Source: Patescibacteria group bacterium
GTDB taxonomy: Bacteria > Patescibacteriota > Minisyncoccia > Minisyncoccales > UBA10102
Reading direction: 5' to 3'
DNA length: 64,000 bases
Assembly: GCA_024239055.1 (NCBI GenBank)
Contig: JANBVJ010000002.1
Location: 67,874 to 131,873 of the forward strand
In this document: in pieces, positions 3,231-36,800 of the stretch
How the letters are laid out: every line of letters starts with the position of its first letter
Position numbering within the stretch: the first letter of the stretch is position 1
Program-made: the position numbers and the translations under genes
Notes under the pieces: generated by a model
Seen by the model: the letters and a program-made list of their open reading frames with translations, nothing else
Database searches by the model: none
Told to the model about the DNA's origin: nothing

Positions 3231-3584
3231 TCATTGACACTGTGGGAATGTTGGATAGATCGTACAGAAGCCTGATGTTGGTTCACTGACTAACATTTCA
3301 CCAGTATTAGATCCAGCAACACATTCACCTTCATGTGCAATTTCAACTCCTTCTGCTTCTGCAAAGCAAGAGTTTGAAAATGTTTCACCATTAACTCCAC
3401 AGACCGGAGCAAATATCAATATGCAAGCAATTGGTTCTGGTTCTGGTTCTTGAGATGCTAATAAAATACTAACTAACGATCCATCTTCTGATACTGGAAC
3501 AAAAACTGCTACTGCTATTAAAGCAACAATCACTATTGAAATTGCAACTCTATTTCCAATTCCTTTTTTCTTTTTTTCTGCCAT
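3231..3584 (-). CDS. Membrane-anchored protein with atypical (4-Cys) Kazal-type inhibitor-like domain
   Basis: Start MAEKKKKGIG + TM helix (ATG at 3582-3584, TAATG overlap with the upstream stop). The domain ACILIFAPVCGVNGETFSNSCFAEAEGVEIAHEGEC matches the Kazal core PVCG-x-[DN]G-x-T[YF]-x-N-x-C ... G-x-C. The Cys pair C1/C5 is missing together. Confidence 0.65.
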   Translation of the reverse strand: MAEKKKKGIGNRVAISIVIVALIAVAVFVPVSEDGSLVSILLASQEPEPEPIACILIFAPVCGVNGETFSNSCFAEAEGVEIAHEGECVAGSNTGEMLVSEPTSGFCTIYPTFPQCQ

Positions 3585-3874
3585 TATGCACTCGCATTCC
3601 AAAACATCAAAGTCTCTTTACATGCTAAACATTTTTTATTGGTATATCTATAGAAAATAACTCCACCATATCCACCAACAAAAATCACTGCAAAAAGTAA
3701 CAACCAAGTAATAGGTTCCTGAATAAATGGAAATTGAAATGTTGGAAAACTATTCTGAACAAGTGCTAAATATCCAAAGTAAATCAAACCTGCAAAAGCA
3801 CCTGCTGTAATGAAACTTGTCTTTTCACAATGTCGCTTATCCAGAAACCCAAGACCACCAATTCCTTTCACCAT
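3584..3874 (-). CDS. Multi-pass membrane protein (96 aa) with C-terminal CxxC
   Basis: Three hydrophobic segments. C-terminal KKCLACKETL. An ATTTTAG-type element lies just upstream of the ATG. Confidence 0.6.
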   Translation of the reverse strand: MVKGIGGLGFLDKRHCEKTSFITAGAFAGLIYFGYLALVQNSFPTFQFPFIQEPITWLLLFAVIFVGGYGGVIFYRYTNKKCLACKETLMFWNASA

Positions 3875-9985: not shown

Positions 9986-10212
9986 TGGTACACGAATCCC
10001 TTTTTTTTTCGATAATTAACTGTACTGTTCTTTGAAGTTGATCGTGGTCTCCTTCTTAATCTTGCACTACAACAAGGACATGATATTCCTTCCCACTCAA
10101 TGAATATCGAACAACAAGAACAGAAACCATTCTCTGGTTTTTTATATTTCGAAGTAGTGTGGTAATCCTTACAGATTCCTTTACAAGTAAACTTGGTTGT
10201 TGTGCGACCCAT
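9982..10212 (-). CDS. Zinc-ribbon protein (76 aa from the ATG at 10212; ORF track extends to a TTG at 10263)
   Basis: MGRTTTKFTCKGICKDYH ... CSCCSIFIEWEGISCPCCSARLRRRPR. Paralog of 16253-16501 (MACKGICNNYE ... CSTC ... CPCCRLQLK). The ATG at 10212 overlaps the TAA of a small upstream ORF (TAATG). Confidence 0.6.
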   Translation of the reverse strand: MGRTTTKFTCKGICKDYHTTSKYKKPENGFCSCCSIFIEWEGISCPCCSARLRRRPRSTSKNSTVNYRKKKGFVYQ

Positions 10213-11541: not shown

Positions 11542-11580
11542 GAAAATTTCATGTTTCATGAGAGAGTTTTGTGTTATACA
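11542..11580 (-). promoter_or_regulatory. Conserved 39-bp promoter/leader element, copy a (upstream of the ParB-like gene)
   Basis: Minus strand reads TGTATAACACAAAACTCTCTCATGAAACATGAAATTTTC, identical at 38 of 39 positions to 55702-55740. TATA-like TGTATAA at its 5' end. Confidence 0.6.
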
Positions 11581-11730
11581 TTATGTAACTTAGAACAGTC
11601 TAACACTTCTTGATCGTTTGATGATCAATAAATAAAAATAATTATTATCTTAATTTTGTACACGCAGGTGCGATCGGATAAATAAGTCTGGATCATTAAT
11701 AGGAGAACTCTTTTTCGACTTTTTGTTAGT

Positions 11731-12117: not shown

Positions 12118-13740
12118 TTACTTTGTCACTCGTTTCTTTCTTTGTCGTTGAAACCATTTCTGATAGCCTGTAAATGACCAATCATCAGGAGCAAGACCCA
12201 ATGTTACAACATGATCAAATACATCCTTTTGTTTCATCTTTGATTTGGATTTGTCAGTAGGATTCATCATTGACATTGTTAAATCATATATCCTATCCAT
12301 GTTTGAATCCTTTACTTTCTTATCATCATTCAATACATCCTGTGCTGTATCAGTTAACTCTCCATCCTTCTTCTTTTCAATAAACCTCCATGTTGCTCTT
12401 TCTTTGTTTTTCTCAGTCTCTTTGATTATCCCTGTATCTTCTTCGAAATCATCATCTGCTGAATGGTGATGGAACTCCGGCATTCGTACATTGAATAGTT
12501 TGAATATGTTTCCTTTTTCGTTTTTCTTTGGATACAGAACATACATTTGGTCTGGTCTTAGATCTTCAAAGTTTGGATACATCTTTTGTGCATAACCTAT
12601 TCCCACTTTCTCAATAACTTTGTCTCTAAATTCTTTAATCATTTTCCTTAACCAATCATAATCTTCCGGTACAATGTCTATGTTAGATTGCTTCCAAATG
12701 AAGAAGTCCCTTTGGTCACGCACATTTTTTAGCACATCCCCACCACGTTGCATGTCTCCAACTAAACTTACGTGAAAATGTCTACAAATCTTTACCAATG
12801 CGAATACTGCTTTCTTTACAATTACTTGATTGCGTTCTTCTGTTAACATTGATGCAACGAGTGAACCGAATTCCCTCATCACTATTGTTACTCTATGTCT
12901 GTTCTTTTCTTGTACAGTCCATTTACTAAATGGTACAGGTTTATCTAATCCTCTTTGTTGAGCAATCGTTCTAGGTGTATTTGTCTTAAAGTTTGAACGT
13001 ATTATTTCTGGTATTTCTCTTAATGTTTTTTCAAGAATGATTAACTTGTGATTTACTTCTCTAAAGAAGATTGGATTCATAGTAATTATTCTTCTTTCAT
13101 TCTTACCCATTAGCATGATCTCAGTCAGGTCAGCAACGAATAGTTCTCTGTTCTTGTATCCCTTGTTTGGTACATGTATTTTCCTTACCTTAATCCATTG
13201 AATATAATCAGGTCTGATTGGTTTTTTCCTTTCCTTTTCACCATTTTCATGTGTAATTAGTGTTCCATATTCTATATGACCTAGATCTGCCCATTCTCTT
13301 TTTGAATAAAACTTTCCATTGAATTCATCTAGGGCTTGCTGATCAATTTCTACATAATCTGGTACTACTAGAACTATTTTGTATTTTGAATCACAATTAC
13401 AATGAAGTGGTTCTATTGTTCTTTCTCTTTCTGGTAGTTTTTCATTCTCAATATTCCACCTTTCCCAATATTTTTTACAATTTTTGTTAATTACCCAATA
13501 AAGTGACTCGTAATTACCTGCACTATGTAGGTCTAATACAGTATGTCCTGCCCTGAAATTTTCTTCTGCAATTACTTCATCAAGACTTGACTTTCCACTC
13601 CCACGATTGCCCATAATGAAATAGATGAATGCCTTGAATGGATTGATAAATGCGTTAGGGTTTTTTGGTTTCTGTTCTACTTGTCTTTGATGTACGAACT
13701 CTTCATGAGTTTCATTTGCTTCATCTTGTTCCTGTGCCAT
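12118..13740 (-). CDS. P-loop NTPase (540 aa), candidate genome-packaging ATPase / terminase-large-subunit-like
   Basis: Walker A FIMGNRGSGKSS resembles the GGRGSGKS-type loop of some terminase large subunits. Candidate Walker B is KIVLVVPD. A large C-terminal domain has unknown fold. No portal or capsid gene lies nearby, so the role is tentative. Confidence 0.75.
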   Translation of the reverse strand: MAQEQDEANETHEEFVHQRQVEQKPKNPNAFINPFKAFIYFIMGNRGSGKSSLDEVIAEENFRAGHTVLDLHSAGNYESLYWVINKNCKKYWERWNIENEKLPERERTIEPLHCNCDSKYKIVLVVPDYVEIDQQALDEFNGKFYSKREWADLGHIEYGTLITHENGEKERKKPIRPDYIQWIKVRKIHVPNKGYKNRELFVADLTEIMLMGKNERRIITMNPIFFREVNHKLIILEKTLREIPEIIRSNFKTNTPRTIAQQRGLDKPVPFSKWTVQEKNRHRVTIVMREFGSLVASMLTEERNQVIVKKAVFALVKICRHFHVSLVGDMQRGGDVLKNVRDQRDFFIWKQSNIDIVPEDYDWLRKMIKEFRDKVIEKVGIGYAQKMYPNFEDLRPDQMYVLYPKKNEKGNIFKLFNVRMPEFHHHSADDDFEEDTGIIKETEKNKERATWRFIEKKKDGELTDTAQDVLNDDKKVKDSNMDRIYDLTMSMMNPTDKSKSKMKQKDVFDHVVTLGLAPDDWSFTGYQKWFQRQRKKRVTK

Positions 13741-18044: not shown

Positions 18045-21000
18045 CTATCTACCTTTGCCACGTTTGAACTTTCGTTTTGGTGTATTAGCATCAAATGAAG
18101 TAAAGCGATTCTTGTTTACTCTTCTTACTGTTCTAACTCCCCTCTTTGTAATTGCACCTCTCAAGAAGAACATCATCATAAACACAATCAAAATTCCAGC
18201 AAGCCACCAGTAGTTTTGAGTGATGAAATCAACTATCTGACATATTACATCACATGGTATTCGTTCAGTAGCATCAACTGTTACAATATGTTTCTCTTTG
18301 AACTCAACTCCACCTTTGGTTATTGAGAATATTATTGGTATTTCGTAAACAAGTGGATCAATACATGGAACTGGTGTTACAAATGGATCAAGTCCTTCAC
18401 ATGATATTAGTGGAACAGTAAGTACGAAACTCTCTAATGCAGTATTCTTAAACCTAGCCGGATCATTAATTGTCCTAGAACTATCTACTTCTGTATCAAA
18501 TCTTAATGTAGTTGGGAATGTTGAAAATGAAAACCATGTATTGAATTGTTGATCTGGTTCTATGTTTGAGATTTCTACTGCTGTATTCATCATACCAAAT
18601 GTAGAAATTACAAAGTCTGATGGAACATTATCTTTTGGTACTACATTGAATAGTTCTGATAATATTGATAATCCTACTAATCTTTCAAATGATGGTACAC
18701 CTCCACCAGTTGATGCACTTCCAGAACCACCAGCAGTCTGATTAGTGGCAATTGTAAAGAAGATACTTGGATCATTAACTGTTACTGTATCATTAATTGC
18801 TATATCTAGAATTCTAAGTAAGACAACATCATCCTGAATTGTTGATATATCCTGAATTAGTTTTGTTACATCAATTATAACATTATCTTGTGTAACTACT
18901 GGATCTGTTTCTGTTACATCTGAATCCTTACTACTTTGTACTGTATCTGATACTGATGTAGTATCAATGAATACCTTTGTTGGTACTAAGTCCAAGTTAT
19001 CAAATGCACTTGCTACATCTGATAATTGTCTAGTCACATCAAGAATTACCAAGTCATTTGCTGTGATTAGGTCAATTGGGTTTTCTCCCAAGTCTGTAGT
19101 AGAATCAATCAAGTCTGAAACACTTGCTGTATCTGCAAGAAGTTTGGTTAGGCTAAAGTTCAATTCATCTGAATTTGCAACTACATCTATTATTGCTTTG
19201 ATAATTTCTAATCTCACTTCATCGTTTGCTTGAACTGTATCTAACTCAAGAATTTGTGTTATTACGCCTGTATTAGTCTGGTCTATTATTGTTATAATGT
19301 CTGCAATAGTCTTTTCAATATTCTTATCTGGATCATCTAATACTGTAGATAAATCTGTAAGTGCCTTTGTGATTTCAAACTGTAATTCATCGTTTACATT
19401 TGTTGTATCAAGAAGTTCTACTGATCTGAATACACCTGTATCTACCAAGTCTAATATTGTCGCTGTATCTAAAAGACCCATTGAGATATTGAAGTTTGTT
19501 TCATCCAATGCAGTTACCGTATCTATGTTTAGTTTTGTAATGTTAAGTGATGTAACATCTAATACATCTCCTGTATCACTTAGTTCTATTACAAATACTG
19601 CATTAGTGTTTACTGTATCAGATGATGCTATTGTATCAGTTGCTAATTTTGTAACGTTCTTGTTTTGAGATAGATCTACTGCTGTTACCACATCTGAAAC
19701 ATCTTGATCAAATACCTGACCTGTCAAAAACTCCATAACCTGATAACCTAACTCCCATGATCCTGTTGATAATCCTCTTTCAAATCTTACAGTCGTTGCA
19801 TTTTCTAATGTGATTTTTCCATGTGCCTCACCAAAACTATCTGTATCCGATTTTGTTGCCTTACCGTTTGAAAATCCCATTGGTGACATTGAAGTTCCTA
19901 TTGCAATTGAATTGTTAAAGATCCCTACCGATGTAATTGTTGCAGTATCGTTTTCTGTTCCTGCTGTTTGGTTATGAATTAGATGTTGAATATTAGCAAA
20001 GTCAGAAGGGAATGTAATTAACTGCCAATTAATCAAGAGTGCTGGATCTGCACTATCAACTCTTTCAAATACCATGTCTGGTGGACTGCTACCATCCAAG
20101 TGTGCGAACAATGCTGAATCATCCGGTTCATCTTCAAATTCAGAATTTGAAGTCATGTGAGTAACTAAAAGTATAGTCTGGTTTCTAATTACGTCAGTTG
20201 GTGGACTAACAGACAATGTTGTGCCTGATAATGATGCCTGACCTCTTTGGACAGAAATATTATTTTGATTCCAATCTATGATGTTTACCACTGCTACTGA
20301 TTCTTGTGTGTCAGATGGTAATTCAACTTCGTATCCCCATGTCGTATCATTTAGTATTCTTATTCTAGCAAATTCTTCCTGCCCAATTGTTGTGTCACCA
20401 AAAGTAGATGACCATGAGTTGTATTGAATATGAGAACCACTTGCATTAACAGGACTCATGTGCATTACCAATTCATCAGTATCTATTCCATTTGGATATT
20501 GAACTTGATCTCTTTGAACAAATATTGGAGATGATTGATCAAACTCTACAATATATGCTGTAAAATTTATTGCATTATTTGTTGCTAGTGGATCATTTGA
20601 ACCATGAATTCTAAGTGTAGATGTATCAACTATTCCAAATCTTTTCAATCTCTCGCTTACATCTGCTGTATCTAGTGATGCATCTTCAATTGACATGAAA
20701 AGAATTGTATTATTAACAGTTAGAAGTGAAGGAGAAATTGAAAAATCTTGAAATACTGATGCACCTGTGTATGTATCCTCAACTTTTACAATCTGTCTTA
20801 ATGTGTTTGTTCCCTGTGCGTTTTCTGCTTCATCGGCTTCTAAAAATTCAATTAACTGCCATCCTATCTCTTGGAATGCAGTTGAATCTTCCCTGCTAAT
20901 CTGAACCCTAGTATTATTTATCACCTGTAATGTTGATTGTGATCTGTCTATTCCACCATCAATTTCACCATCATTAGAACCTGATCCAGTTGAATAACCA

Positions 21001-22079
21001 AATGGAGTACCACCATGACTCATTGCTATGGTTTTGTCATAATCTTGTATTTCTGGAACTATTACATCAATTGAAAGTTCAGTATCAAGTAAAGTTGAAT
21101 TGAAATGTTTAATCTTGATAAAGTCGGCAGGAAACTCGATTAACTGCCAAGCAACAAGTAATTCTGAATCATCATCATCTCTGAAAAATCTTATATCCCC
21201 ACCATCAGTTAATGATCCTCGTATCATTGAATCGTCATTTGGTTCTGTTGATGCTCCATCAGATGTGTATGTGAATAAGAACATTGTTCTGGTAGGATCA
21301 ATTGCTGTAAAGTCAGTTCCACCAATTAACTCACCTGTGAATGATGGATTTACCATTGTGAAAAGTCCTGATTGAACTGAAATATCCGTTTGATTCCAAT
21401 CTATTACTGAGACTAACGAACCTTGTGGTGTGTCTGGTGCTGTATCTATGTTAACTCTCCAAGTTGTAGAATCTAAAATATCTATTCTTAGAAAATCATT
21501 GTTACCCACAGCAGTTGCAGAAACGTTAAGATGCATTCCACGACTAACAATCATGCTGTTTGTTGTATTAACAGAACCCATTGTAAATGATTGACTACCT
21601 GCACTTGAAGCAAGAGATTCTTGTAAGTGTTGGACATCAATTTCTGATGTTCCATCATATTCAATGATATATGCAATAAATTCTACTGCATTATTTCCAG
21701 TAGCAGTATCTTCCCCTTTCAGTCTTAAAGTATTAACATCTAAAATCTCAACTGACTTGAATGTGTCACTTGCATCATTTTCTCCTGTATGTCTTACTGT
21801 GTAAATTACAAATGATTTGTCAATGTTTTGTAGTGGTGGATCTATTACAAAGTCAGCACTTGCAACATCAGCAGGGTAAAGACCTGCAATTTTTATGACC
21901 TGTCTTATCTCATTGTCTGCAAATGCTGGTTGAAATGTGAATGTAGGTGTTATTGCTACTAACAATAAGATGAAAAATCCAGCATAAAGTTTTTTTCTAT
22001 TAATTTCTATGTTCTCAGATTTTAAAAATATGTATCCAGCAATAGGAATTAGAATGACCAGAAAGAGAGGATTGATCAT
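18045..22079 (-). CDS. Giant secreted surface protein (1344 aa) with internal duplication, D/T/V-rich repeat region and C-terminal anchor module
   Basis: Signal-like N-terminus ending FQPAFA/DN. A ~400-aa module occurs twice (IRQVIKIAG... and LRQIVKVED...), with recurring WQLIEF-type strands. Periodic D/T/V-rich repeats span ~18775-19715. Gly-rich linker, ERLVGLSILS module, TM helix and K/R tail follow. ATGA overlap with the upstream gene. Confidence 0.9.
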   Translation of the reverse strand: MINPLFLVILIPIAGYIFLKSENIEINRKKLYAGFFILLLVAITPTFTFQPAFADNEIRQVIKIAGLYPADVASADFVIDPPLQNIDKSFVIYTVRHTGENDASDTFKSVEILDVNTLRLKGEDTATGNNAVEFIAYIIEYDGTSEIDVQHLQESLASSAGSQSFTMGSVNTTNSMIVSRGMHLNVSATAVGNNDFLRIDILDSTTWRVNIDTAPDTPQGSLVSVIDWNQTDISVQSGLFTMVNPSFTGELIGGTDFTAIDPTRTMFLFTYTSDGASTEPNDDSMIRGSLTDGGDIRFFRDDDDSELLVAWQLIEFPADFIKIKHFNSTLLDTELSIDVIVPEIQDYDKTIAMSHGGTPFGYSTGSGSNDGEIDGGIDRSQSTLQVINNTRVQISREDSTAFQEIGWQLIEFLEADEAENAQGTNTLRQIVKVEDTYTGASVFQDFSISPSLLTVNNTILFMSIEDASLDTADVSERLKRFGIVDTSTLRIHGSNDPLATNNAINFTAYIVEFDQSSPIFVQRDQVQYPNGIDTDELVMHMSPVNASGSHIQYNSWSSTFGDTTIGQEEFARIRILNDTTWGYEVELPSDTQESVAVVNIIDWNQNNISVQRGQASLSGTTLSVSPPTDVIRNQTILLVTHMTSNSEFEDEPDDSALFAHLDGSSPPDMVFERVDSADPALLINWQLITFPSDFANIQHLIHNQTAGTENDTATITSVGIFNNSIAIGTSMSPMGFSNGKATKSDTDSFGEAHGKITLENATTVRFERGLSTGSWELGYQVMEFLTGQVFDQDVSDVVTAVDLSQNKNVTKLATDTIASSDTVNTNAVFVIELSDTGDVLDVTSLNITKLNIDTVTALDETNFNISMGLLDTATILDLVDTGVFRSVELLDTTNVNDELQFEITKALTDLSTVLDDPDKNIEKTIADIITIIDQTNTGVITQILELDTVQANDEVRLEIIKAIIDVVANSDELNFSLTKLLADTASVSDLIDSTTDLGENPIDLITANDLVILDVTRQLSDVASAFDNLDLVPTKVFIDTTSVSDTVQSSKDSDVTETDPVVTQDNVIIDVTKLIQDISTIQDDVVLLRILDIAINDTVTVNDPSIFFTIATNQTAGGSGSASTGGGVPSFERLVGLSILSELFNVVPKDNVPSDFVISTFGMMNTAVEISNIEPDQQFNTWFSFSTFPTTLRFDTEVDSSRTINDPARFKNTALESFVLTVPLISCEGLDPFVTPVPCIDPLVYEIPIIFSITKGGVEFKEKHIVTVDATERIPCDVICQIVDFITQNYWWLAGILIVFMMMFFLRGAITKRGVRTVRRVNKNRFTSFDANTPKRKFKRGKGR
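18775..19715 (-). repeat. Coding low-complexity periodic repeats (D/T/V/L-rich) inside the 1344-aa gene
   Basis: Translation shows ~17-18 aa periodic units such as DTxxVxDxxxxxxxKxL. The antisense strand gives spurious S/V/F-rich ORFs (18967-19233, 19297-19668). Confidence 0.6.
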
Positions 22080-24150
22080 GTTGGTGGTTTTGGTACAGCG
22101 AAGTTTGGATTGTCACCAGTACCATTTGAACCTCCTAGTGCTAATATTACATCTGTAGTTACATTTCCAATAAAGTCGTTAATGTTTTGAATAATTAGAT
22201 ATTTTGTTCCATAAAATGCACCAGCATTTGTCATTTCTTGGGAAGATGAATATGATCCGTTATTCATCTTGTCAATTATCTGATACATGTTCAACTGGTT
22301 TGTATCAATGTCAGTAAAGATTGAATTAAGTTCAGATGTTGTAATGTTGTAATGTTGTATTGTGTTTACTAGAATTTGCTTTTCTAAAAGTGTGAAAGTA
22401 TTACTTGGGTTTGGTTCAATTATAGTTCCGTTCCCATTAATTTCTGCTGAACTTGGTGGAGTTGCACCACTGAATTCGTTTGATGGGATTGAAAATCCAC
22501 TGATTAACATTCCGGTCAGGCGATAAGTTACAATACTGTTTGAATCTAATCCAGTATCATCAAATGTTGATGTTACCGTAGTAACGTTTCCAACATTTAA
22601 GAAATCAGTTCCATTCTGTCTTTGAATAATTACATCTATTATCTCTGCATCAAGTTCATCTGCTTCCCATGTTAGCCTTAATGATGAAGAAGATAACGTA
22701 TCGATTAATGATATTGATCCAGTTGTTACCTGTTCAATCTCAAAAATTACAAATGAAACATTTACTTTTTCTCTTGCATTTGGTGAGTTTGAACAACTTG
22801 CATCACAACTTGCAGTTAAAGTTAATTCTAGATCTGTATAGTCTGTAATACTATCTGCTTGTGTTCCGGTTAGTTCTTGCTGGAAAATAACATAATTTGA
22901 TGTTAATCCTGTATGTGTGAATGATGCGATTTCTGTAACTCCTTGTCTTAGTTGTATTGTAAATTCAACTGGATTAGTCCCAACATCTGCTTTTCTAACT
23001 GTATATTTTAGAAAATGACTGTCAGATCTTTCTGGATCATCCATGTCACTCATTGTCATTATGTCAATATCGCTGTCAGAACTTCCTAACCCTAATGATT
23101 GAATGAAATCTCCATCATCCCTTTCAGATTCATTTACACACTCAAATGTAGTCAAGTCACCACATGGAGCATTCCCTAAACCATTTACCCATCTTACCGA
23201 AGGATTGCTATCTGGACTTGCAGAAAATAAGATTACAGTTGTTCTTTGTGAGATCTGGTTTGAAGGAAGGCTTTCAGCAGATGTACCTTTTGATACTACG
23301 TGATATGTGTAGAAAGTATCTGGAATTAACCCTGTATTAGTAAAAGTCGTGGTTCCGTTTAGAACATTTCCAACAGTATTGAAAGTTGTACCATTGAATC
23401 TTCTAATATCATAACTTAGAACATTTGAAAGGTCAACTGGTGCAGTCCAATCTAATTGCAAGGCAGTTGAATTTACAACTGTAACTGTATCAAGAGTTGG
23501 TGGTGGAATAATTGGTTGATCTAAAACTGCGAATTCTGCCCAAGAAACACTTACACTATCTCTATTTCCTCCTGCACTACATGTTCCTGAGTTACAAGAT
23601 GCTTCTAATCTTAATTCAAGGTCTGTATAATCTGTAATTGAATCTGCTTCTGTTGGTGTTAGTGCATATTCATATTGAGTAAAAGTTGTAGTAAGTGTTC
23701 CCTGTGTAATGTTTAAAACTGCAATGTCAGATGTCTGACCTTGTGATAAATATACAAGAAGGAAAGGTGCATTCACACCAAGCCCTTCTTCTCTTGCTTG
23801 TACTCTGATAACATGTCCGTCACTTTTTAATGGGTCTGTGACAGATGTAAGACCAATAAAATCAATATCTTGGTTACTTGTGGAAATTAATGAAGATGTA
23901 ATAAAATCTGTATCATCTGGTGTCACTTCATCTAAACAATCCCAATGCTGTAACCCTGTACAACCTGTCTCTCCTATCCAATCAACTCCTGTATCTGCAT
24001 CTGGTCTTGCAAAAACATCAACTGCAAAAGCACTATCTATTGAAATTAAAACTATTGTTGTTGTAAATAAAAATGGAAGTAATATAACTACAAAAAAATA
24101 TTTTTGTCTTTCAGTTACGCTTTTTTTTTGTGTAAAAAATTTAGGTTCAT
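22076..24150 (-). CDS. Secreted protein (~691 aa) with 2 x [~130-aa Cys/Asp domain + FN3]; reading frame interrupted at an A9 tract (24121-24129)
   Basis: The ORF track gives 22076-23926 (GTG start). The same frame stays open up to 24157 and encodes a signal peptide (KYFFVVILLPFLFTTTIVLISIDSAFA/VD), but it has no ATG/GTG/TTG. An ATG at 24148-24150 in the neighbouring frame reads MNLNFLHKKKA-stop through the A9 run. A -1 slip or a tenth A joins the two. Confidence 0.6.
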
Positions 24151-24169
24151 CGCTACTCTATTCACTCAC

Positions 24170-24745
24170 CTAAGTTACGGTTATAGTATAGTTGACGTTC
24201 AAAGTGTCTCCGGCAGAAATCGTAACGCTACCGAATGTTGAACGTGCAAACATTTGCCCACCTGCAATTCCGTTAAAAATTCCGGCTTCTGTGATCGCAC
24301 CAGCACACGTAGCACCATCGAAGGATGATATTACACTTGTTGATGTTTCACCAGATGTTCCTGAATTTGAATCAGGTGATGCATCTTGTATTCTTGCACA
24401 TGCACTTGTCTCAATCGTTGTATCTACTGCTGTAGGTGCAGTTGTTCCGGTTCCGATTTCTATGAAATCAAAGAACGTTGAACCTGCTCCACCAACTCCG
24501 AATGTTGCTTGACTCATCTCATCAAGTCCGACATCTACAACTAGGTTGTGGTTTTCAATCGTGTACTTTAGCATTCCAGTTTCAGTGTCAAAAACTTGTA
24601 AGATTACATGACCTGTAATCTGAGATGCATCTACTAGAGATGGTGTTTCTGAAAGTTCAGATTGGAATGAAGTTGAAAACGCAGACATTCCAAGAAGTAC
24701 AGCGACTAATGGAAGTGCGAAAAGTGCGTATTTTATGTTAGTCAA
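24170..24745 (-). CDS. Small secreted beta-rich protein (191 aa) with atypical G/C-richer codon usage; candidate abundant structural subunit
   Basis: TTG start (in-frame TGA 12 nt upstream). Signal peptide YALFALPLVAVLLGMSAFS. C-terminal ITEAGIFNGIAGGQMFARSTFGSVTISAGDTLNVNYTITV resembles fibre/jelly-roll-type strands. Many CpG-containing codons, unlike its neighbours. Confidence 0.85.
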   Translation of the reverse strand: MTNIKYALFALPLVAVLLGMSAFSTSFQSELSETPSLVDASQITGHVILQVFDTETGMLKYTIENHNLVVDVGLDEMSQATFGVGGAGSTFFDFIEIGTGTTAPTAVDTTIETSACARIQDASPDSNSGTSGETSTSVISSFDGATCAGAITEAGIFNGIAGGQMFARSTFGSVTISAGDTLNVNYTITVT

Positions 24746-24810: not shown

Positions 24811-27800
24811 CTAACTTGAATCGAATTTCTTCTTGAATTTCTTCTTTACTCGTGTCTGTCTCCTTCTGCCTCCCTTGACCCTTCTTCTAATGAAGTTTCC
24901 AAACACTGCTGAGGCTATTAAGACCATGAATAGTAGGATTATCTGTAATTGGACTATATCTAGAGGAATAGGTCTGCCATCTACGAATACCTCAGTCGAA
25001 GCCACATATTCTTGATCACCAAGTCCGAACCTGAATTCTAATGGTAGAGTGTGTAGGATTGGGTCAAAGCAGTTTATTGTAATGCCTAAATCTGCATTAC
25101 ATTCTGATGGAGGCAAAACTATTGTATATGGAATATCAGCACTCGACATTGCAAATTCACCAGTTCCTTCAAGTCGCTGAACAAGTGGGAATGGTGGCAA
25201 GTCGAATCTTATATCTAGGTCTGAATCTGGAAGAGTTATTCCCTTTACTATGAGATTATCTTCTCCTTCCCATTGAACTGTGATAGATCCTTCAATGACC
25301 TGTCCTGCCTGAGCAAACTGATGAGTTCTTGAGAGTATTGAAAGTCCAGTTAACCTTTGTGCAAACACTACTTCTGGATCTGGAATCGTTATTTGTGGTG
25401 TTGGTTGTGAACCACTTCCTCCACCTCCACCACCTGCTGGTGCTCTTCCTAAGAATAGGTTGAAGTTGATTGTTACATCAGTCATGTTAACTACGTATGT
25501 TTCAGATGTGATTTTATTCAATCCTGAATTATATGAAGTTGGAACTACATCTGCACTTGCTAGGAATTGTTCTGCATTTGCCTTGAATATTGTAGAGATA
25601 AAGTCTGCAACCATTGTAGAAGTATCATTTACTGCACTTCCTTGCCATCTTGTACTCCAACTAACTTGATCGGTTGAATCACAAACTGGTGTTGATGGGA
25701 ATTCTGTAATGTCTTTTGCATCAGTATAGTTTACTTTGATTCTAATATCTGTGCCAGCACCATTCGTGGGACAATCAACGTCAAATACCAATGCATTTAT
25801 CGTAAATTCTGATGTATCATTGCCTGCTGGTGCAGGGAAGTTGAATGTCTTGTTTAGGATAAAGTCATCTGCATCTGTGAATGTAAAGTTAAAGTTTCCT
25901 ACAGCAAGATTATCAAATATTGCGTTTGAATTTACATCAAGACCTACAAGTAGATTGAATGTAGAGTTTACACCTTCAACAATTCCTCCACCTTTGAAGA
26001 ATGATCCATCCTGTTCTCTTACCTTGACGATTAGATGAGATCCAAATATTATATCTACAACATTACTTACAGTTCCCTCTCCTGCACTTGAAAGTGCCCT
26101 TATACGATAACCAAATGTATCAGGCTTTGTGACATTTGAATCGCTGAAATTCAAAACGTTTGGAGTCGTAGTATTGGCAATTAATGTAGTGAATCCTCCA
26201 AAGTTAATTCTTCTATCAATCTTGTAACCTGTAATTGGGTTTGCAGAAGCCGGAGTAGTCCATGAAATATCTATCTGATCTCCATTTTGTGCACCTGAAA
26301 GTAGAGGTGCATTAGGTGGACTAGCAGTTGTTATTGATCCTTCATTGCTGAATGCTCCTGTACCAAATGCATTGATTCCTGATATTCTATATGTGAATTG
26401 TGTAGCAGGAGTTGTTGTCGTATCAGTAAACGTAACGAGTGAATTACCAGTATTAGCAATTAGAACTAAAAATCCACCTGCTCCAACCTTTCTTTCAATT
26501 TTATATCCAGTTGGTGATCCTGCTGGTTCAGTCCAATCTATAGTTACATCACCATTTGGTTCTTCATTAACATCAACAAGTGATGGTGCATCTGGTACAC
26601 CTGAAATAACAGGCAAACAACTTTCAATGTTTGAAGTAACATTTGCGAATCCTAACCTACTTCCTGCACGTACATCATACTCGTACAAAATATTCATTAA
26701 AAGTCCAGTATCATTATGAGTTGTTATTATGTTTGTTGTATTTGAAATTAAGGTCGTGAATCCTCCACCATCTACCTGTCTAAATATTCTGTAACCGTTT
26801 ATTGCTGATGTAGTTACTGGTGCTGACCATGAAAGTTCACATGTATTTAGTACAGTTGATGCTGATAGATCAGTTATTCCTTCTGGAATTGTTGGTGGAG
26901 TGATAACTACTACATCATTTGATGATACCAAGTCACCTGTAAAGAATGTTAATGTTACATTTCCAGCACCACCATTTAGGAAAGTAATATCATCAATTGT
27001 TCCTTCATAAGTTGAATCTCCTGTACCATCTCTATTGCTTACCATTACTTTGAGATACCTAATTCCTGTAGTACCTGCTTCAATAACTTCTTCTACAGAT
27101 TCTATTGGAGATAAGAAGAGTGGATCTGAAAATATCGTTGCTGTAACTGCTGTACTGTTTGGAACTCCCCTTTGCACTTGAAGATAAACATCATTTATTC
27201 CTAAATCGTCTACATTCGTGGTAAATACTTCTCCTTGAGTTGCTCCTGTATTAATTACAGTTCCATCTGATGCAATAACTCTAATTATTCCATCAGGATT
27301 ATTATGACTTAATCTAAATCCTATAAAGTCCTGACCTTGATTTGGAAGGAGTGTGTTGCTATCACCAAATCCAATAAACAAGTCATTTCCTGTAGTATCT
27401 GATCCTGCTGATAATGCTGTAATATTCAATTTTGCTCTTAGTAACCAATCTTCTGTATCTAGAGTTGTTCCTATTGGGTCAACAAATTCACCTTGATTGT
27501 AGGTTCCTGTTCCACTTGAATCCCAATCCATGAATCTACTTACTGTATCTACTGAAACTCTTGTTCCAGACATTGTTGTAAAGTTGTCAGTTTCAAAGTT
27601 ATCAAAGAAGTCATACTCTACTAAGTAAATGTCATCAACTATTCCAATAATATCTCCGTTTGCAGTTCCATCACTATTTTTTACCATGACTTTGAGATAT
27701 TGTAAATCTGTTATTCCTGCTGGTATTGTTACTGTTTGTGATTCTAATAATGTGTTGAAACTTGCATCAGAAAATAGGTTTATTGTTAGACTTGTAGTTG

Positions 27801-30800
27801 AGTTTCTAATCATTTCTACATAAATTAATTCTTGAGTAAGATTTCTTGTAAATGTCGCTAATGTACTTGATCCACCTGATGGGAATCCTCCATCTGATGC
27901 TACCACTTGATAATCTTCTGTGTTACTTGCAGTTTGTAATCCCAAACCTATCCAATCTTGTATTGCACTTTGGACTACTGTTTCATCCGAATCGGATAAC
28001 CCAATGTGCATTTCCAGTGCAGTTGCATCACTGTTAATTGAATATGTTTGAATATCTAATTTGTATCGAAGTGCTAGTTTGCTATCTGCCTGTAATGCAA
28101 CTCCTAAATCAAAAGCAATTCCATCATTTGTTGTAACTGATGTTGGCACACTAAAGTCTAATTCATCATTGGATATGTTTACTCTAACTCTTGCTGTATC
28201 AGTTGTTGTCCAATTTCCATCTGCCTCTCCTTGAGTTGTATAAGAAGTGAAGTTATCAGCAAATATAGTTGCTCCACCTCCACCTGAAAATATCTCTACA
28301 TTTCTTATGACTTTATCAATAACGTTTCTTCTTTCATCTAGAACTGTTACAACATCAGTTTCAGTTTGAGTTGAATTAACTCCACCTACATCAGTAGTGG
28401 CATTTACAATTAAATCGAATGCACCAGTTGAAACTGCTGACTGACCTTTTGCCCTATATATGAAAGTGGTATTTTGAATTAACCCTGTATCATTAAATTC
28501 TGTAATCAATTCATCAACAGTTGTTACATTTATGAAATCACCAAAGACTTTAAGGCTTGTATCCATATCAAACTGGAAAATTTCATCATCTGCTACTTCG
28601 TCAACATAAACTGCTGAACCAGATTGTGGAATCCACAAACTTCTAGGTTCTGGTGCGAACAAACCTCCTTGACCTACATTAATTCCTACGCCTGTTGTAA
28701 TCATCGTAGTAATATCAAACGCAGTTGTCATGTTTCTACCATCAACTGAATCATTTAATCCTCCACCAATATCTAAAAGTCCTAAGAACTTTCCATCAGA
28801 TCTTACAGCAACGTCAAATACACCAGTAGAAGGTAGATAAGGAACATCTGCAACTTGTGATAAAGTTGTAATATCCCATGCAGTAGTTAAATCAAATTGA
28901 AATAGTCTGTCATTGTCTGATTTCGGAGCATACAATCTGCTTCCATCTTCTGTAATCCAAATTCCTTGTATGAAAGTAGGCAATGTTGTAAACTCTGCGT
29001 TGAATGCTAATGTGGATAAATCAAATGGTGTTGATAATGTATATTCATAAATGTCTGTATTACCACTTTCAAGAATAAACATCTTAGTTCCATCTAATTT
29101 GAAATGAACATCTGTTATTTGAGCAACTTTTGATCCTAATGTACTAGATAAGTCTGTACTATTTTGTGTAGATACTGCTGTTGATACCTCAAACGGAGTT
29201 GTTAAACTGAATTTGTTAACGGTATCTGTAAGTACGTCAGGAACAAACATTTCTGTACCATCTGGTGTGATGTATAATCCAGCACCAACATTGTATGAAC
29301 TTGTATGGTTTGTTGGGTTTTGATCATTTCCACTTGTTAGATTCCAAATTCCTATCTGCTGTGACCTTTGTATAATTACTCCTGTCAATGGATCTGATGG
29401 ATGAATTGTTCTTGCTTGATCCCAAGAAATATTTATTGCAGTTGAGTTAAGTGCTGTTGCATTTAGACCTGTAATTGGTTGAATTAGACCAAATTCAACT
29501 ATTGTAGAGTTTATACCAAATCCATTTGTATTGTTTGCACGAACTGTATAATTCAAAAGGTTAGTTATTGGACTAATTGTTGTATCTGTAAATTCGCTTG
29601 CAACTGGTGAACCAATTAATACAGTTCCATTTCCAATTACTACAGTACCATTTTGATTGTTTAGTGTTGCTTGAGGATTTCCAAATATACCAACTTCAAA
29701 CAAGTCTGTGAAGTTTATGTTTGGATTAGAAAAGTCATATATTGTTTCAGTTTGTCCTGCTGATGCGTTACCAATGAATAATCTGTAAATTTCATGCTGT
29801 GTAGAAACAGATACAGACTGGTCACTGTGACGAATTAAAACTGTAACAATATCATCTGCACTTGATAGATCTATTCCTGTTTCATCAAGAGTAACGTTTT
29901 GTATTCCGATTGAAGTTACTGGTACTACTGGTGCATTTGCTATTCCTAGTTGTGTAGCCACTCTTGGTAAATCTGTTGGAAATACAGTTGGTATGTTTGA
30001 TTCTACATCACCATTTAAAACTTCTATACTTAATCTTCCATGAACTAGACAATCAACATTACCACAATATGACTGGTGTTCAAGAATTATGTCCTTGTTT
30101 TCTATGAATGATTTTGTAAATGTTTTGAGGACATAACCTTCACCAAAAGATAATAAGCCCAAATTACCTTCTATTCCAGTTTCATCTGCATTGTTAGATA
30201 GTAATGTTCCGTTAGGGCTAATTGTATAACCATATCTTGCGTTGTTTGCACTTGTAGCAAAGGATGTGTGTTCTTTTATTGTCCATTGGCTTCCATCTGT
30301 TCTAAAGACCTGATAATTATCAGTATCAGGAATATCATCCCAATCCAATGTAGCATTGTTATTCATGTTTTGAACTACAGTGAGACCTGTAACTTGTGCT
30401 GGTGGTTGTGGAAGTGAGAAACTTGTTGTATTTACAAATCCTCTTTCAGCGATAAATCCTTTCTGTAGATCCATACAAGTTTTTGGACAGACATCACCTG
30501 CTCCTTGTCTATTTCCTTCAACTGTGTATATTATTTGTGGGTTCGTGAAGTTCCATGTTCCAATTTTTGAAACTGTAATATTTGCAATAAATAATTCGTA
30601 AGCACCAGCATTAGAACCAACTGGTGATGAATCTGGATCTCTCATTGATACTACTACTGTAGCGAAACTTGAATTGAAACTACCCCAATTTATGCTACTT
30701 GCATTTAGCGTTTGAATTGTCATATTGAAATCACCTATTCCAGCACCAACTGATGCACCTTCTATTCCAGACAAAGTTAATCCTGATAGACTTGTTCTAA

Positions 30801-33800
30801 CACCATCTACATTAGATAGAACAGGTATATCATGTGCAAAATTAAATCCAGAATCTTTGTTTATAATTCCGTCATAAACAGCGAGAGTTGCAACACTTGT
30901 TAATCCAACACTTTGAACACCACCATTTGCTTCTTGTTGCCATGCGATTTCAATTGATGAATCGGTTATCTCAGTTAAGTTGAATATTTTGAAGAAATGA
31001 ATTATACCTGCTCCCCTGTCATTATTCTCTGCATCCCCACCTGTTGCAGATAGACCTGTGTTGATGTTTAGTAAGTCAGTTGGTAATGGTTCACCATTGT
31101 CTGCTGTTGTTCTACCTTCCTGAGCACCAATTGATACGTTTGCATTTGGAAATTTGCCACCACTTCCACAATTGTTTAAACATCCTGCTCCACTTGCACC
31201 TTCAAGAATTGACTCTTCAAGGTCATGTTCTCTAAACTGCCATATTTTTGAAGTTGAATTAAACAAGTCACTTCCAGAAATTAGTGGTGCTGTTTGATTT
31301 ACAATTGATGATACATTACCCTCTGTACTTCCAGTTAATGATTGAACTTTATAGAAAAATAGATTTCCTTCATCTTCACTTGTTAACACATCTGTAAATG
31401 TATCAACATCACCAAGCGTTGCTATTTCTTCAAATTGATCCCCGATAAGATCAATTTGTAAGTTCAGAGTATTGAACCTAGTCCATGCAGTTAAATCTCC
31501 ACCATTTTCAGTAACTAATTCACCATTATCAAAATTTGTTGCGTATGATGTAAAGCCAAAACCTGTGTCATCTCTATACATCTGGATAGTACCAACTATT
31601 GATCCGTTTGTGTAAGCACCTACCATGTATGTTTTATTAGCCAATAATACAAAGTCGTCAAACTCAAAATCGTGGAAATTTCCAGATGGGAATGGATTTG
31701 ATCCTATTGTGCTAGTAAATATGTCTGTACTATTTTCTAATATCTCATTTAGAGATGCACTTGAACCATTGAATACTGCTACTTTAAGTACGCTGTTTCC
31801 ACCTGACCATGATGTACCTACTATCTTTAATCTTATTTTATCAAGAGTAAAATCTTGATTTCCCATAGTAAAGTTTTGTGCTCTACCACAAGGTTGAGCA
31901 CCACCACAAGTAAAGTCATTAAATGTTACAGTTCCTTGATTTCTAACACCTCCAATTTCTACATCTCCAACTGGTTTATCGTTTAGTTTAAGATAATCAT
32001 TTGGTAGATCTTCACCTTTAACTTTAGAAGTTGTATCATTTGTTGCTTTTCTTAAAATTTTATACCCATCGGCAGTTATCTCCTTTGTCCAGTTTATTGT
32101 AATGTCATTTCCAATTTGTACTGCTGTAACATTTGTTGGAGGTGGTGTTAATGTAGCGTTTACTGCTGTTGCATTTACAGTGTTTGAGAATCCACCTTGT
32201 TCTAGAAGTGCGTTCAATCCAACTATTCTGTAAAAGTATGTGTTTCCTACAACTGGTGATGCTTCATCTATATTTGTGTCTGAAAATGTAGTTGCAGTTG
32301 AACCAGTATCATCAACTTCTGGATCTGCTGAAAGTTTTGTGTTGTTAATTACTGCAATTGTGAATAACATGTCATTGTTTGCTACGTTTGAAGTCCAAAT
32401 TTGAGTTAAAAAGTCCCAAAATGAATTACCACCTTCTCCAACATTTGCTCTTGAATCACAGTTTAATGTACCACTTGTACCTTCCCACCATGAAATACCA
32501 ATACCTAGTTTTCTTGCATTATCAATATTTACTCCATTTGTAATGTTAAGCAGGTCTGAACCTCTGTAGTACCAAGTTAATGCATTATTTGTTCCCCAAT
32601 CTTCGGGTAAAATTATGGTAGTTGAGTTTGCTATAGTAGAGTTATCTGATGAAATTGTTAACATTCCATCATTAAACAATGAACCTGTTGTAAAACCACC
32701 AATTGCACTATTCTCAGAACATCTATTTCCTCCTGAACCTCCTTCAAATCTAGATATTACTAGACCTTCCCATCTGTCTACTATCCATCCATTAAAGAAA
32801 TCACCTCTCTGTAATATTGCATCGAAATCACCTGAACTTCCTTGCATTGAAATGTTTTGTGGAGTTCCACCTGCTGTTTCTTGATATTCTATTACTTCAT
32901 CTGCTGTTTCTGTTGAAGTTCTGAAAATTCTGTAAGAGTCTGCACCAGCACTTGCATTCCATGACAATTCTATACTTTGTGTTTCTTCATTAAATACTGC
33001 TGTAAGATCTGTAACTGGATCTGGTGGTGGTGGTGGTGAAAATCCTGCACCTGCTGTTATTATTCCTGAATCCTGTTGATTATTAAACAAATTATCATTA
33101 GATGAAAGATCATTATCATTCCATGTATTAGCACCAAATGGATCACCTGCTCCACCAGATCCAACTAATTGTTCAACAGGTGAATTTGTAAAGTTCCATG
33201 TGCCAATTTTTGAAATTGTAATATTATGTATTGTGTATAGGTGTTGATTTGATTGAGCATCCTCAAAGACAAAAAATACAGTTATCCAATCTGATTCGTT
33301 ATCAGCATAATCTATTGATCCTGCTGGTAAAGTGAATTGTGTTAGTACAGTAGAAGTTGGTGCATTTACACTTGCAAGAACTGAATCGCCTGTAATATCC
33401 TGTTCAATTACATCTCCACTACCTGACAATGGCAAAGAAGGTGCTGGTGGATAATCTGAACCAATATCATTATTTTGTAATCTGAAATAATCATCTGCTT
33501 GATAAAATCCTTCCATAACTCGTATGTTTAAATCAGTAGAACCTATTGGTGGATGTTTATAGAATGTTGAAATATCTGAACCATTAATCAAAGTCGCATT
33601 AAATGACTTGAACATCACACAACATCCTCTTGGATCTCCAAGTGATGCTCCTGCTTGACCTGATTGGAATTGTAATCCATCTGTATCATTTGCTATTCTC
33701 ATGTGAGGAACTACTAGCCTTCTTGTATCAAGTTCTCTGTATTGCCATACTGACGATGTTGAGTTTGCAATGTCGCTAGTACCCTCAACAATTGGTTCTT

Positions 33801-36800
33801 GTCCTATTGCAAAGTTAGATTCATCTGCTACGACTATACCATTCAATCCCCTTACATTATAATGACATGTAGTTCCATCAGGACAAGTTGTATCTGTGAA
33901 ATTTGTAATGAGACTGCCTGTATCAGCAACTAGAATATCAAAGTCAATAAATCCAACTCCCATAAACGCATCGTTTGTGGTTACGGTATTGTTAAATACA
34001 AATGGAACTGTATCTGAAAATACTTCAAACCCATCTACAGCAGTATTATGTCTTGAACCAACAAGCATTCTTACTTCCATATCTAATGCTGTACCGTTTT
34101 TTGTAATTCCTATAACATACTCACTACCAGATGCAATCTCTACTGGTGGATCAAAAGTAAATCTAAATGGTGGAAAACCTGAAAAAGTCGATACACTACA
34201 GGCATCAACTAAGTTAGTAGAGTTTGCTATCCATGCAGATGTATCATTATTGAAAATGCTACCCATAAGAGTTTGTTGTCCTATAGTACAAGGTAACGCA
34301 CTTTGTTCATATAACGTAGTCACAATACTTGTAATTTTTTCATCTGATGTTGCGTTGAAGGCTTGACCTACAATGTGCAATGGATCTTCTTTTGTAAATA
34401 TTGTAAATGAAGTTCCAGCAGGTAAACTAAATCCAGCACCATTTTCCCAATGTAAGGGGAAGAAGAAGTTTCCTTCTGATGTTTCACCATAATGGGTTTC
34501 ATTACTAAGTGCTCTTTCAATCCTATATCCTGTTACATTTCCTGTAGGAGTTGTCCAGTTCATGAAAATTGAATCTGATACTGGTGTTACTGTGAGGTCA
34601 TTAATTGGATCTGGTGCTATTATTGGTGGTGCAACTGCAAATGTTACCATTTCTCCATAGTTTAGAGTTCCAGCAGTTAGCGTTCCCTGTGCATTTTCTC
34701 GGAAGAAATCATTTTGAGGTACTCCCATTCCTACCATTGTTGTGTTTTGTGGATTATGCAATAGAGTTGGTGGATGGCTTACACCTGCATCATTAAATGC
34801 TAAGACTCGATATGCTTTTGTAGTATTTGTTGGTGGTGGTGAAGTATCTGTAAAGTTAAGATCCCCTGCTGTTGTAGTGCCAATTGTTTCCCATACTGTT
34901 TCTGCATAAATAGCCATAGCATAGTCCTTGTCTTTTGTTCCGTTGATTGGATTACTTGTGAAAATTCCACTGATTGTATCTTCACCAATTGCCCAACCAC
35001 TTGATCCTCCACCTACTCCTGTTTCTTCAAAATAGACTTTGAAACTTCTGTTAACAGATGTTGTACAATCTCCACTGTTACAGGTCTGTGCTCCTGCTTG
35101 CTGATAACCAAAGATATACTCATCTGGTTCTAAATGAATTGGTGGTGAGAAAACCCAATTTACAAATCCTTCATCTCCTAACGCACCTCCTAAATCATTC
35201 TCCATTGCAATTCTTGGGTTAATTGATCTTGTAATCTGTGTTCCATTGGCAAAATGAATTGAACCTGAAATATCTGGTTCTACGTTAAAAGAACCACATC
35301 CTGCACAACCAAGTTTTACTACAATTCTTGTGATGTTTACTGCCTGTGTTATGTTTAGTTGCTGTCCTGCATGTGTTCGATCAGATGAATCTTTTGGATT
35401 ATTGCTAGTGGTTAATCCAGTTCCATCTAGGAAAAATTCTTCAACATCGTGGCTAAGTCCATCATAAATTGTTGTTTCGTTTCCACCTGTTGCTCTTTGA
35501 ATGATGTATCCTTGAATTGGATCTTCTGAAAGTTCCCTTGATTTTTTGATTGGTGCTTCTGCCCATACTAAATCAACTGTTGCACCATTATCCGTTGCAT
35601 TCAAGTCTGGAACTCTTAATGGAGGTAGTGATAGTGTTCCATTTACTATACTTGAAGTTCCATTTTCACCTAGTATATTTTTTGGAATTATTCTGTAAAA
35701 GTAGGAATTATAATTATTTGTTGTAGTATCACTAAAGAAATTATTAGTTGTTGTTGTAATGTTTATGAAGGTTTGATTCATTACGTGTGATTTTATTTCT
35801 AAACCACTTGTAGTGAACCATTGAAATGTTGAATCTTGGAATCTCCAACCACTTCCACCACCAGCAAATGGTCTTAGAACTCTAAAACCTTCACCTGATG
35901 TAAACTCTTTTCTAAATGCTCCAATAATTTCTGCATTTGCTGTTTCTGCAACTGTCAAGTTCTTCAATTGAGTTCCTAGATACCTTTGTTCGACCTGACA
36001 GTTTCCATCAAACCATTTTCCTGTTGATCTTTGTGTCCAACCATCCTGTTCATAATCCGTTTGCATTCTTGAACAATCTCTTGCTAGTCTGGTTCCATGA
36101 GACATCATGAATCCTGTTTGATTCACTTCTCCTTGTACATCAGGTTCAAGTTGATTTACTCCACCACTGATTACATTAAGCCAGTATCCATAAACTACCT
36201 GACCACCAGTTGGATCATGGAAATCAAATCTTCCAGTTCTAAGTTCGCTTTGAGTAGGTATATCAAAAGTATCAAAGCCTGAATCATCACCTAAAATGTC
36301 ATTTGTACTTGATGTTGAAAGTGCAAAGTTTGATTCTGAACCAAATCCATCTGCCTCTACTTGCTGTCTTTCAGTTGATAATCTTTGAACTACATATTCA
36401 TCTGCATTTGGAGTTACATCCCAAGTAAGATCAAGTTCACCATTTATGTTATCATGTGATATTGCTAAGTTAACAACTTGATCTGGTGGTGATGTTACTG
36501 GTAATTGTGCTAGAACAGTGTCTACAGCAACAACAAAATCTAATGCTGTTTGATTTAGGTTAAATCCTTGTGTTCCGTTTAAGATTACAACTGTATCCCC
36601 TTCTATATCTCCGTTGAGAGGAACAATTCTGTAAAAGTATGTATTTTTTGCAATTGTAGTAGTATCAGTGAAGTTTGTATCAAGTGAACCTGTATCATTT
36701 ACAAAAGGAATTTCTGGACTGAAAAGTTTTGTTTGATTTACAACTGCAAATTCAGCACGTAAATCTTGTCCGTTAGTTGTTCCCCAAAAAGGAACTGAAA

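Follow-up and report, generated by a model that had tools for sequence, protein, structure and literature searches.

How can a gene of about 680 codons be expressed when its own reading frame offers no start codon? The question is raised by a locus in a 64,000-nucleotide stretch of DNA (the window; contig JANBVJ010000002.1, positions 67,874 to 131,873, from an assembly labelled as a Patescibacteria group bacterium), in which the long frame of a putative secreted protein is separated from the only ATG that could serve it by a run of nine adenines (A9). We propose that this run is a selected, programmed recoding site, and the comparison of homologous loci makes it very probable that recoding of some kind takes place here. 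Coordinates of the recoded gene and of its neighbours refer to the 64-kilobase (kb) window and to its minus strand.

The frame break and the predicted fused product

Mechanical gene calling lists an open reading frame (ORF) of 616 amino acids at 22076..23926, beginning with the GTG at 23924..23926. The frame of this ORF stays open upstream to position 24157, just past a TAG at 24160..24158, and the extension translates as SSDEPKFFTQKKSVTERQKYFFVVILLPFLFTTTIVLISIDSAFA/VDVFARPD... (in a fuller reading, SSDEPKFFTQKKSVTERQKYFFVVILLPFLFTTTIVLISIDSAFAVDVFARPD...). A search of this frame for ATG, GTG or TTG from 24157 down to the GTG at 23926 found none. The sole canonical start able to serve the gene is the ATG at 24148..24150, relative to which the long frame is the -1 frame. 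In its own frame, here the 0 frame, this ATG opens a leader ORF of only 11 codons (24115..24150, with a TAA stop at 24117..24115), which reads ATG AAC CTA AAT TTT TTA CAC AAA AAA AAA GCG TAA and encodes MNLNFLHKKKA. The proposed recoding site is the A9 run at 24121..24129, where either an extra A in the mRNA or a -1 slip of the ribosome would join the leader to the long frame. A -1 shift within the run, or a tenth A, gives the fused product MNLNFLHKKKSVTERQKYFF..., and without the shift the leader peptide would be a dead-end product. The GTG at 23926 lies inside a conserved, folded beta-sandwich domain, and its choice as a start is an artefact of the frame break. An earlier sequence-only reading of the locus had described this arrangement, and when the sequence was re-read its coordinates, frames, A9 position and lone offset ATG proved correct in every detail; its statement that the extension holds no ATG, GTG or TTG was borne out by the translation, and the fused product and signal peptide that it predicted were right.

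The fused protein would be secreted. The segment 24023..24127 of the -1 frame is a predicted signal peptide, with the n-region KK-SVTERQK, the h-region YFFVVILLPFLFTTTIVLISI and the c-region DSAFA, and the predicted cleavage site falls after AFA and before VDVFARPD. Judged by eye, the fused sequence has the positively charged n-region, the hydrophobic h-region of 15-25 residues and the small-x-small c-region of a Sec-type signal peptide (KKK..R.K, then YFFVVILLPFLFTTTIVLISI, then S-A-F-A before V), and the same n-h-c pattern is kept in all lineages, in which the c-region ends in AFA, VFA, AYG, VYA or AHA. The predicted mature protein of about 650 amino acids (22076..24022, stop at 22078..22076) would consist of two modules, each a beta-sandwich plus an FN3 domain, and a C-terminal helical bundle. 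Pfam matches fn3 to the recoded protein (1.1e-09), and an AlphaFold2 model with a predicted local distance difference test score (pLDDT) of 78 places residues 1-45 in disorder, the chain being folded from about residue 48 into two beta-sandwich plus FN3 modules and a helical C-terminal domain. A Foldseek search of the PDB returned only generic multi-FN3, MAM and Eph extracellular ectodomains and pointed to no specific function.

The sequence FARPD..W...C...C, which follows the signal peptide, opens a beta-sandwich domain of about 165 residues. The roughly 75 codons upstream of the called start are open in all lineages and conserved as protein, and within the signal-peptide segment substitutions at codon positions 1, 2 and 3 stand at 0.35, 0.20 and 0.41. 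Therefore, from the codon-position bias of substitutions, the retained n-h-c pattern and the inclusion of this region in a folded domain, we judge that the upstream part of the long frame is translated. The FARPD domain itself is widespread (loci L001-L193) and has no Pfam family; it stands directly after the initiator (MAQ...) in many viral contigs and behind a signal peptide in cellular metagenome-assembled genomes (MAGs).

Conservation of the run among homologous loci

Taken alone, the A9 run is unremarkable, because the coding strand of the window, at 35% guanine plus cytosine, holds five A9 runs, and a first-order model predicts about five runs of at least nine A's. What sets this run apart is its conservation. 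The conceptual fused protein, used as the query, recovered 58 strong homologues. Nearly all of the close ones (60-98% identity) had been called from assorted internal codons (MTPDD, LDEVIP, MNEVIP and others) and without a signal peptide, and these called starts are not conserved and fall inside the folded domain. In the more distant homologues an ordinary start (Met or Val) leads into a signal peptide that ends in ...YA before DSFARPD. The DNA of the close relatives, obtained by a metagenome scan and by exact-protein look-ups, came from several independent projects and assemblies and yielded 17 distinct A9 loci (the window, also L120, with L115, L116, L117, L118, L119, L121, L122, L124, L131, L199 and L201-L206), which share 44-99% amino acid identity with the window.

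The run is exactly A9 in every one of these 17 loci, and in every one the same offset frame has a canonical start, mostly ATG and otherwise TTG or GTG, 2-9 codons ahead of the run, while the signal peptide and the ORF of about 680 codons are open and startless in the -1 frame. The 0 frame meets a stop one codon past the run in 14 of the 17, and the base after the run is G in all except L205, where it is C. Thus the leader reads ATG AGC CTA AAC TTT TTC CAT A9 GTA TAA in L121, ATG TTC A9 GTT... in L117, TTG TTT TTT AAT CTG ATT A9 GTA TAA in L118, ATG GAA AAC CAA TAC CTC A9 GAA TAA in L201 and GTG AAA AAA CTG TTC CTT A9 CGA TAA in L205. In six lineages a T precedes the run and creates a long-frame TAA that overlaps the first two A's, so that the stops of both frames bracket the run. 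Since the long-frame stop overlaps its 5′ edge in those six lineages and the 0-frame stop follows one codon behind it in 14 of the 17, the shift is confined to the run itself.

In an alignment of 15 of the sequences from -40 to +100 around the run (about 150 nucleotides), A9 plus the following G is the sole invariant block, the mean column identity being 59%. The codon before the run varies freely (CAC, CAT, TAT, TTC, ATT, CTT, CTC or TTT). Lysine codons elsewhere in the A9 genes are 72% AAA and 28% AAG, and therefore the three invariant AAA codons are not neutral. Near-identical copies from different samples also carry A9 throughout (L122, L123 and L129 in one set; L119, L196, L197 and L198 in another). 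At the same place the relatives with in-frame starts, L125, L126 and L127, have A8, A7 or A5, and their n-regions vary (LKK, LKR, RLR and KK, with no KKK). The fused product aligns with the in-frame relatives P0029, P0034, P0048 and P0053-57 over the start, the signal peptide and FARPD. The joint conservation of an exact A9, an offset start and a startless signal-peptide frame is, as judged from these alignments, far beyond chance.

Two ways of starting in the long frame were considered and set aside. For non-canonical initiation, no near-cognate codon downstream of the run is conserved; two codons past the KK pair, for example, the window has GTA and other loci have ATA or TTA. L204 has a long-frame ATG, which is followed by the run-overlapping TAA, and a 0-frame TTG can serve in its place. 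Nucleotide and protein BLAST of the window against a phage collection gave no match, and scans of IMG/VR and GTDB genomes found only distant carriers of the beta-sandwich domain of about 165 residues, none with the A9 layout.

The A9 loci do not form a single clade in a neighbour-joining tree, which is a crude one. The A9 loci L122 and L131 are 79% identical to the in-frame L125 and P0029 and only 49% identical to the window, and L205, also A9, forms a separate deep branch. This suggests that the recoded state is either ancestral, with several losses, or was gained at least three times. Recombination of the 5′ end may also have contributed, because the in-frame L125-L127 group carries a different upstream gene.

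Probable transcriptional slippage and its alternatives

Based on this conservation, the out-of-frame run length is, in our reading of the alignments, the state under selection. We propose that a -1 move in a minority of expression events would connect the initiator codon, with its KKK n-region, to the h- and c-regions and thereby to the protein of about 650 residues. On balance, the shift probably occurs at the level of transcription, through insertion of a non-templated A by RNA polymerase: the polymerase would realign on the nine-base A:T hybrid and add one such A, and a fixed fraction of the mRNAs would then be A10 and in frame. Transcriptional slippage is favoured because there is no conserved RNA structure and because nine A's are invariant where a -1 heptamer needs seven. 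RNAalifold, applied from -40 to +100 in 15 lineages, found zero pairs conserved around the site; the window's own fold there is no better than that of shuffled sequences (z = +0.87), and an Rfam scan of the window gave no match.

Published work on homopolymers fits such a shift. In many bacterial genomes, runs of A or T begin to show selection against slippage at a length of nine (PMC1088944), transcriptional indels at A/T runs are mostly insertions, the direction needed here (PMC5574713), and in Citrobacter tssM1, a proven case, poly-A slippage restores the frame at about 20-25% with no other signals (PMC4256274). The present locus has a run of at least nine A's, placed in the overlap of two ORFs, and a frame break that is conserved among diverged homologues. 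With these sequence-level hallmarks, the A9 site would work like the known homopolymer slippage sites of Thermus dnaX, mxiE and tssM1.

Several points weigh against slippage of the polymerase in a faithful A9 genome. Slippage-prone runs are not avoided in the window (five A9 runs observed and about five expected in 64 kb, a small sample); judged by the yardstick of PMC1088944, this would speak for a polymerase that does not slip strongly on A9. The four other A9 runs lie in frame. Programmed transcriptional slippage is undocumented in archaea (PMC8211752), and the host may be an archaeon. The sequence A AAA AAA is in itself a valid slippery heptamer for a -1 shift, and ribosomes may pause at the 0-frame stop close by. 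Finally, the run lengths are those of consensus assemblies, and genomes with A10 may exist at low frequency within the populations.

The first of the alternatives to which these points lead is -1 ribosomal frameshifting on AAA AAA AAA in a faithful A9 mRNA, in which the tRNA-Lys in the P and A sites would re-pair one base back, perhaps helped by the 0-frame stop, and yield the same product, ...HKKKSVTER.... We regard it as rather unlikely, if the most serious competitor. The A AAA AAA within CAC AAA AAA AAA GCG has the form X XXY YYZ when read in the 0 frame, and the -1 frame is open for about 680 codons; A-rich heptamers are established sites of -1 programmed ribosomal frameshifting in bacteria (dnaX) and in a single case from archaea, fucA1, on A-AAA-AAT (PMC8211752); and the lack of avoidance of in-frame A9 runs would be more easily tolerated if slippage needed a ribosomal context. 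However, the stimulatory hairpin, pseudoknot or Shine-Dalgarno (SD)-like element of such sites was not found as a conserved feature downstream or upstream of the run, and the sole candidate for a ribosomal pause is the 0-frame stop one codon downstream in 14 of the 17 lineages. Moreover, the first two A's are not needed for the heptamer, yet they are invariant in all 17 lineages while the codon before them varies freely, and in Escherichia coli systems ribosomes slide only weakly on A9-A10, robust sliding beginning at A11 (PMC4363877). Of the programmed -1 frameshift offered by the sequence-only reading, "programmed" therefore stands, whereas a ribosomal slip on A AAA AAA of the dnaX/fucA1 type, weakened by the missing conserved structure and by the invariance of all nine A's and not of a heptamer alone, is not the best fit; slippage during transcription, which that reading named only among its proposed checks, suits the data better.

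Phase variation at the DNA level, which that reading had also offered, is improbable. Here replication slippage would maintain low-frequency A10 (ON) genomes among a majority of A9 (OFF) genomes. Classically, such switches have a homopolymer early in the coding sequence of a surface or secreted protein (PMC9187656), and a minority of ON genomes would be invisible in consensus assemblies. However, at the consensus level the run shows no length polymorphism: all 17 lineages and all multi-sample copies have A9, with no in-frame allele (A10 or A7) and no other length in any lineage or sample, and the close homologue clusters are all called from internal starts, with no full-length in-frame call. 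If the run were a hypermutable switch, its length should differ from lineage to lineage, as it does among the in-frame relatives (A5-A8), and if selection favoured full expression, ON genomes would be inherited stably and would displace the others.

It is least credible of all that no recoding occurs, the protein starting without a signal peptide at the GTG at 23926 or an equivalent codon, or the locus being a pseudogene or an assembly artefact: gene callers do pick internal starts, and many homologues have an L or M codon at the [LM][DN]EV position that could serve as one, but in the window the codon there is TTA, and a start at that point is not conserved, the 75 or so conserved upstream codons include the FARPD...W...C...C opening of a domain that is N-terminal in many other proteins, and the comparison of loci excludes both pseudogenisation, because the ORF of about 680 codons is intact in all lineages, and the sequencing or assembly error suspected earlier, because an identical A9 recurs in 17 distinct sequences from independent assemblies and in the multi-sample copies.

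Genomic setting, likely role and known systems

The recoded gene lies within a tight block of genes. The upstream gene (24170..24745, 191 amino acids) ends in a TAG at 24172..24170, 19 nucleotides before the leader ATG, and its tail-fibre-like product matches phrog_5417 (1.1e-18) and phrog_4176, "tail fiber protein" (1.8e-11), in PHROG; it precedes the recoded gene in homologous loci too. The ATG of the downstream gene (18045..22079, 1344 amino acids, with a hydrophobic N-terminus) overlaps the TGA of the recoded gene (ACATGATC), and the same four-nucleotide ATGA overlap is present in L194, L199, L201 and L204. Because of this overlap, the downstream gene is probably translationally coupled and hence limited by the same site. 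Since unshifted decoding gives only the 11-residue peptide, the site could act as a fixed attenuator, by which the secreted protein would be held at a low level, constant relative to the upstream genes; we infer that its purpose is to set protein ratios.

All substantial ORFs of the window are on the minus strand, and very few could be assigned to a family. Related contigs, among them three of 112-116 kb, share a conserved gene order: a giant protein (5089 residues here), a tail-fibre-like protein of about 190 residues, the recoded gene and a protein of 1100-1340 residues. From this layout we read the carrier as an uncultivated virus-like genome of about 115 kb. A 540-residue ORF (12118..13740, minus strand) has a weak large-terminase match; homologues of about 900 residues (P0099, P0103 and P0119) carry LAGLIDADG (PF14528) insertions, probably inteins, and one 41%-identical homologue is labelled Candidatus Woesebacteria. 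The other family matches in the window are an MT-A70 methyltransferase, an HNH motif, a Kazal-like domain and a VTT domain. The Kazal-like match belongs to a 123-residue ORF (3231..3602, minus strand; Pfam, E-value about 1e-5 to Kazal-type serine protease inhibitor domains), which is unusual for a prokaryotic virus-like element. The giant ORF (24811..40080, minus strand) always lies two genes upstream of the recoded gene, and its homologues (2600-5800 residues) have faint FN3 and Laminin_G_3 matches. Several neighbouring proteins end in a hydrophobic C-terminal anchor followed by basic residues, such as ...IAIAVVTVVVRRRSGGGISV and ...LGILLVSFGGFVFRGIYRRGF, each directly before its stop.

The window contains further A9 runs that touch genes. 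One, at 44969..44961 (minus strand), is in frame near the start of gene 44975..43314, ATG GCT AAA AAA AAA TCT (MAKKKSAIKTPLIAGVGL..., MAKKKS...), and another, at 49498..49490 (minus strand), is in frame near the start of gene 49515..47746, TTG GCT AAT GGT AGA CCA AAA AAA AAT (MANGRPKKNPLRNVVVALTVV..., MANGRPKKN...). Both encode n-regions of signal or transmembrane segments in neighbouring genes for secreted or membrane proteins, and slippage there would lower the yield and not enable expression. A run at 10009..10001 (minus strand) lies where a small Zn-ribbon-like ORF (...CSCCSIFIEWEGISCPCCSARL...NYRKKKGFVYQ, then stop) overlaps the frame of the MT-A70 methyltransferase (ATG at 9985), and a -1 shift would fuse the two. 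As a candidate for a second recoding site it was set aside: this is an ordinary ATGA overlap in which the methyltransferase starts normally, just before its DPPF motif, and the placing of the run in a two-gene overlap is probably a coincidence.

As to the host, the carrier may be an archaeal virus, an assignment that we make with considerable doubt; the A9 site would then be the first known programmed slippage site for an archaeal-type RNA polymerase. The hints in this direction are hairpin-less oligo-T runs with a repeated motif, the missing enrichment of bacterial promoters and terminators, the scarcity of SD sequences and the occurrence of a homologous domain in archaea. Sigma-70 promoter and hairpin terminator patterns showed no enrichment in the window, an SD-like 4-mer stands at -16..-7 in only 10 of 36 ORFs, and a homologous domain of the FARPD type is present in Nitrosopumilaceae and Nitrosotenuis MAGs. 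An intergenic, TATA-like motif, (T)TGTATAACACAAAACTCTCTC[A/T]TGAAA..ATGAAATTTTC, occurs on the minus strand at 59177..59156, 55741..55720 and 11581..11560, with zero occurrences expected in shuffled sequences, and two of its copies come immediately behind T7/T9 runs that lack a hairpin and lie past the end of a gene. Together, the oligo-T run and the motif look like archaeal-style modules of terminator plus promoter. Against an archaeal host, two MAG labels say Patescibacteria and Woesebacteria. A further motif, CATTTTA(G/A), ends about 3-6 nucleotides before starts that have no SD-like sequence, at 2658, 6783, 54209, 57986 and 60035 (minus strand), and a search of the window for tRNA genes found none.

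A recoded start of this kind has consequences for annotation and for experiment. The gene calls for close homologues in public databases, about 50 protein clusters, are truncated at the N-terminus and have lost the signal peptide, so that the protein would be misread as cytoplasmic. The locus is a clean case, supported by the comparison of relatives, of a gene whose sole functional product would depend on slippage on A9 and whose defect purifying selection maintains at 44-99% protein identity. As proposed here, slippage on a homopolymer could be a durable, built-in means of attenuation in a polycistronic block of a virus-like genome. The site is compact (a start codon, 2-9 codons and A9) and easily moved to reporters, for which the natural in-frame relatives are paired controls. 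If the host is archaeal, the site would offer direct access to the slippage of RNA polymerase in archaea, a domain with hardly any documented recoding, the known cases being fucA1 and a few tail genes of haloviruses (PMC8211752), and the family would contain an obligatory and deeply conserved "expression resistor" inside a signal peptide, gained or lost several times.

Among known systems, Thermus thermophilus dnaX (Larsen et al. 2000, as summarised in PMC1088944) is a case of transcriptional slippage on A9. In that summary it shares with the present site the nine sense-strand A's, a stop close to the run and independence of RNA structure, and its mRNAs, which vary in their number of A's, put the downstream sequence in different frames. 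According to the same summary, however, the standard frame of Thermus dnaX gives the long product and slippage the shorter one, whereas here a functional product depends entirely on the shift, and the site lies at codons 8-10. The fusion of two overlapping ORFs by one non-templated nucleotide resembles that in Shigella flexneri mxiE, on a U run (PMC1088944), and the need of added nucleotides for the longer, functional protein resembles that in Citrobacter rodentium tssM1, on A11 (PMC4256274). These two are genes of cellular bacteria with runs of T9 or A11, and their upstream ORF supplies a substantial part of the protein; here, in contrast, the upstream ORF adds no more than the initiator and n-region, and an uncultivated, virus-like element carries the gene.

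In the sortase-pilus genes of Bifidobacterium breve, too, a homopolymer, there a G-tract, splits an ORF for a Sec signal from the body of a surface protein, and the switch is one of replication slippage, with ON and OFF states in the DNA and selection of ON in vivo (PMC9187656). Unlike that switch, the present run is invariant in length across 17 lineages, which points to slippage at the level of decoding. E. coli dnaX (A AAA AAG) and Saccharolobus fucA1 (A-AAA-AAT) likewise join two ORFs by a -1 shift on lysine codons, and fucA1, like the present gene, requires the shift for its only functional product. E. coli dnaX uses an upstream SD-like element and a downstream hairpin, whereas here no stimulator is conserved and there are nine A's instead of seven.

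The rescue of genes by poly(A) tracts in endosymbionts is usually regarded as tolerated decay in single lineages. Tamas et al. are said to have described in 2008 how such tracts rescue frameshifted genes in AT-rich endosymbionts via RNA polymerase infidelity. Unlike those cases, the A9 site is under purifying selection across deep divergence and is scattered over the tree of its family. What is new in comparison with the known systems is the dark, virus-like carrier, the position at codons 8-10, which splits a signal peptide, the obligatory nature of the shift and the depth of its conservation.

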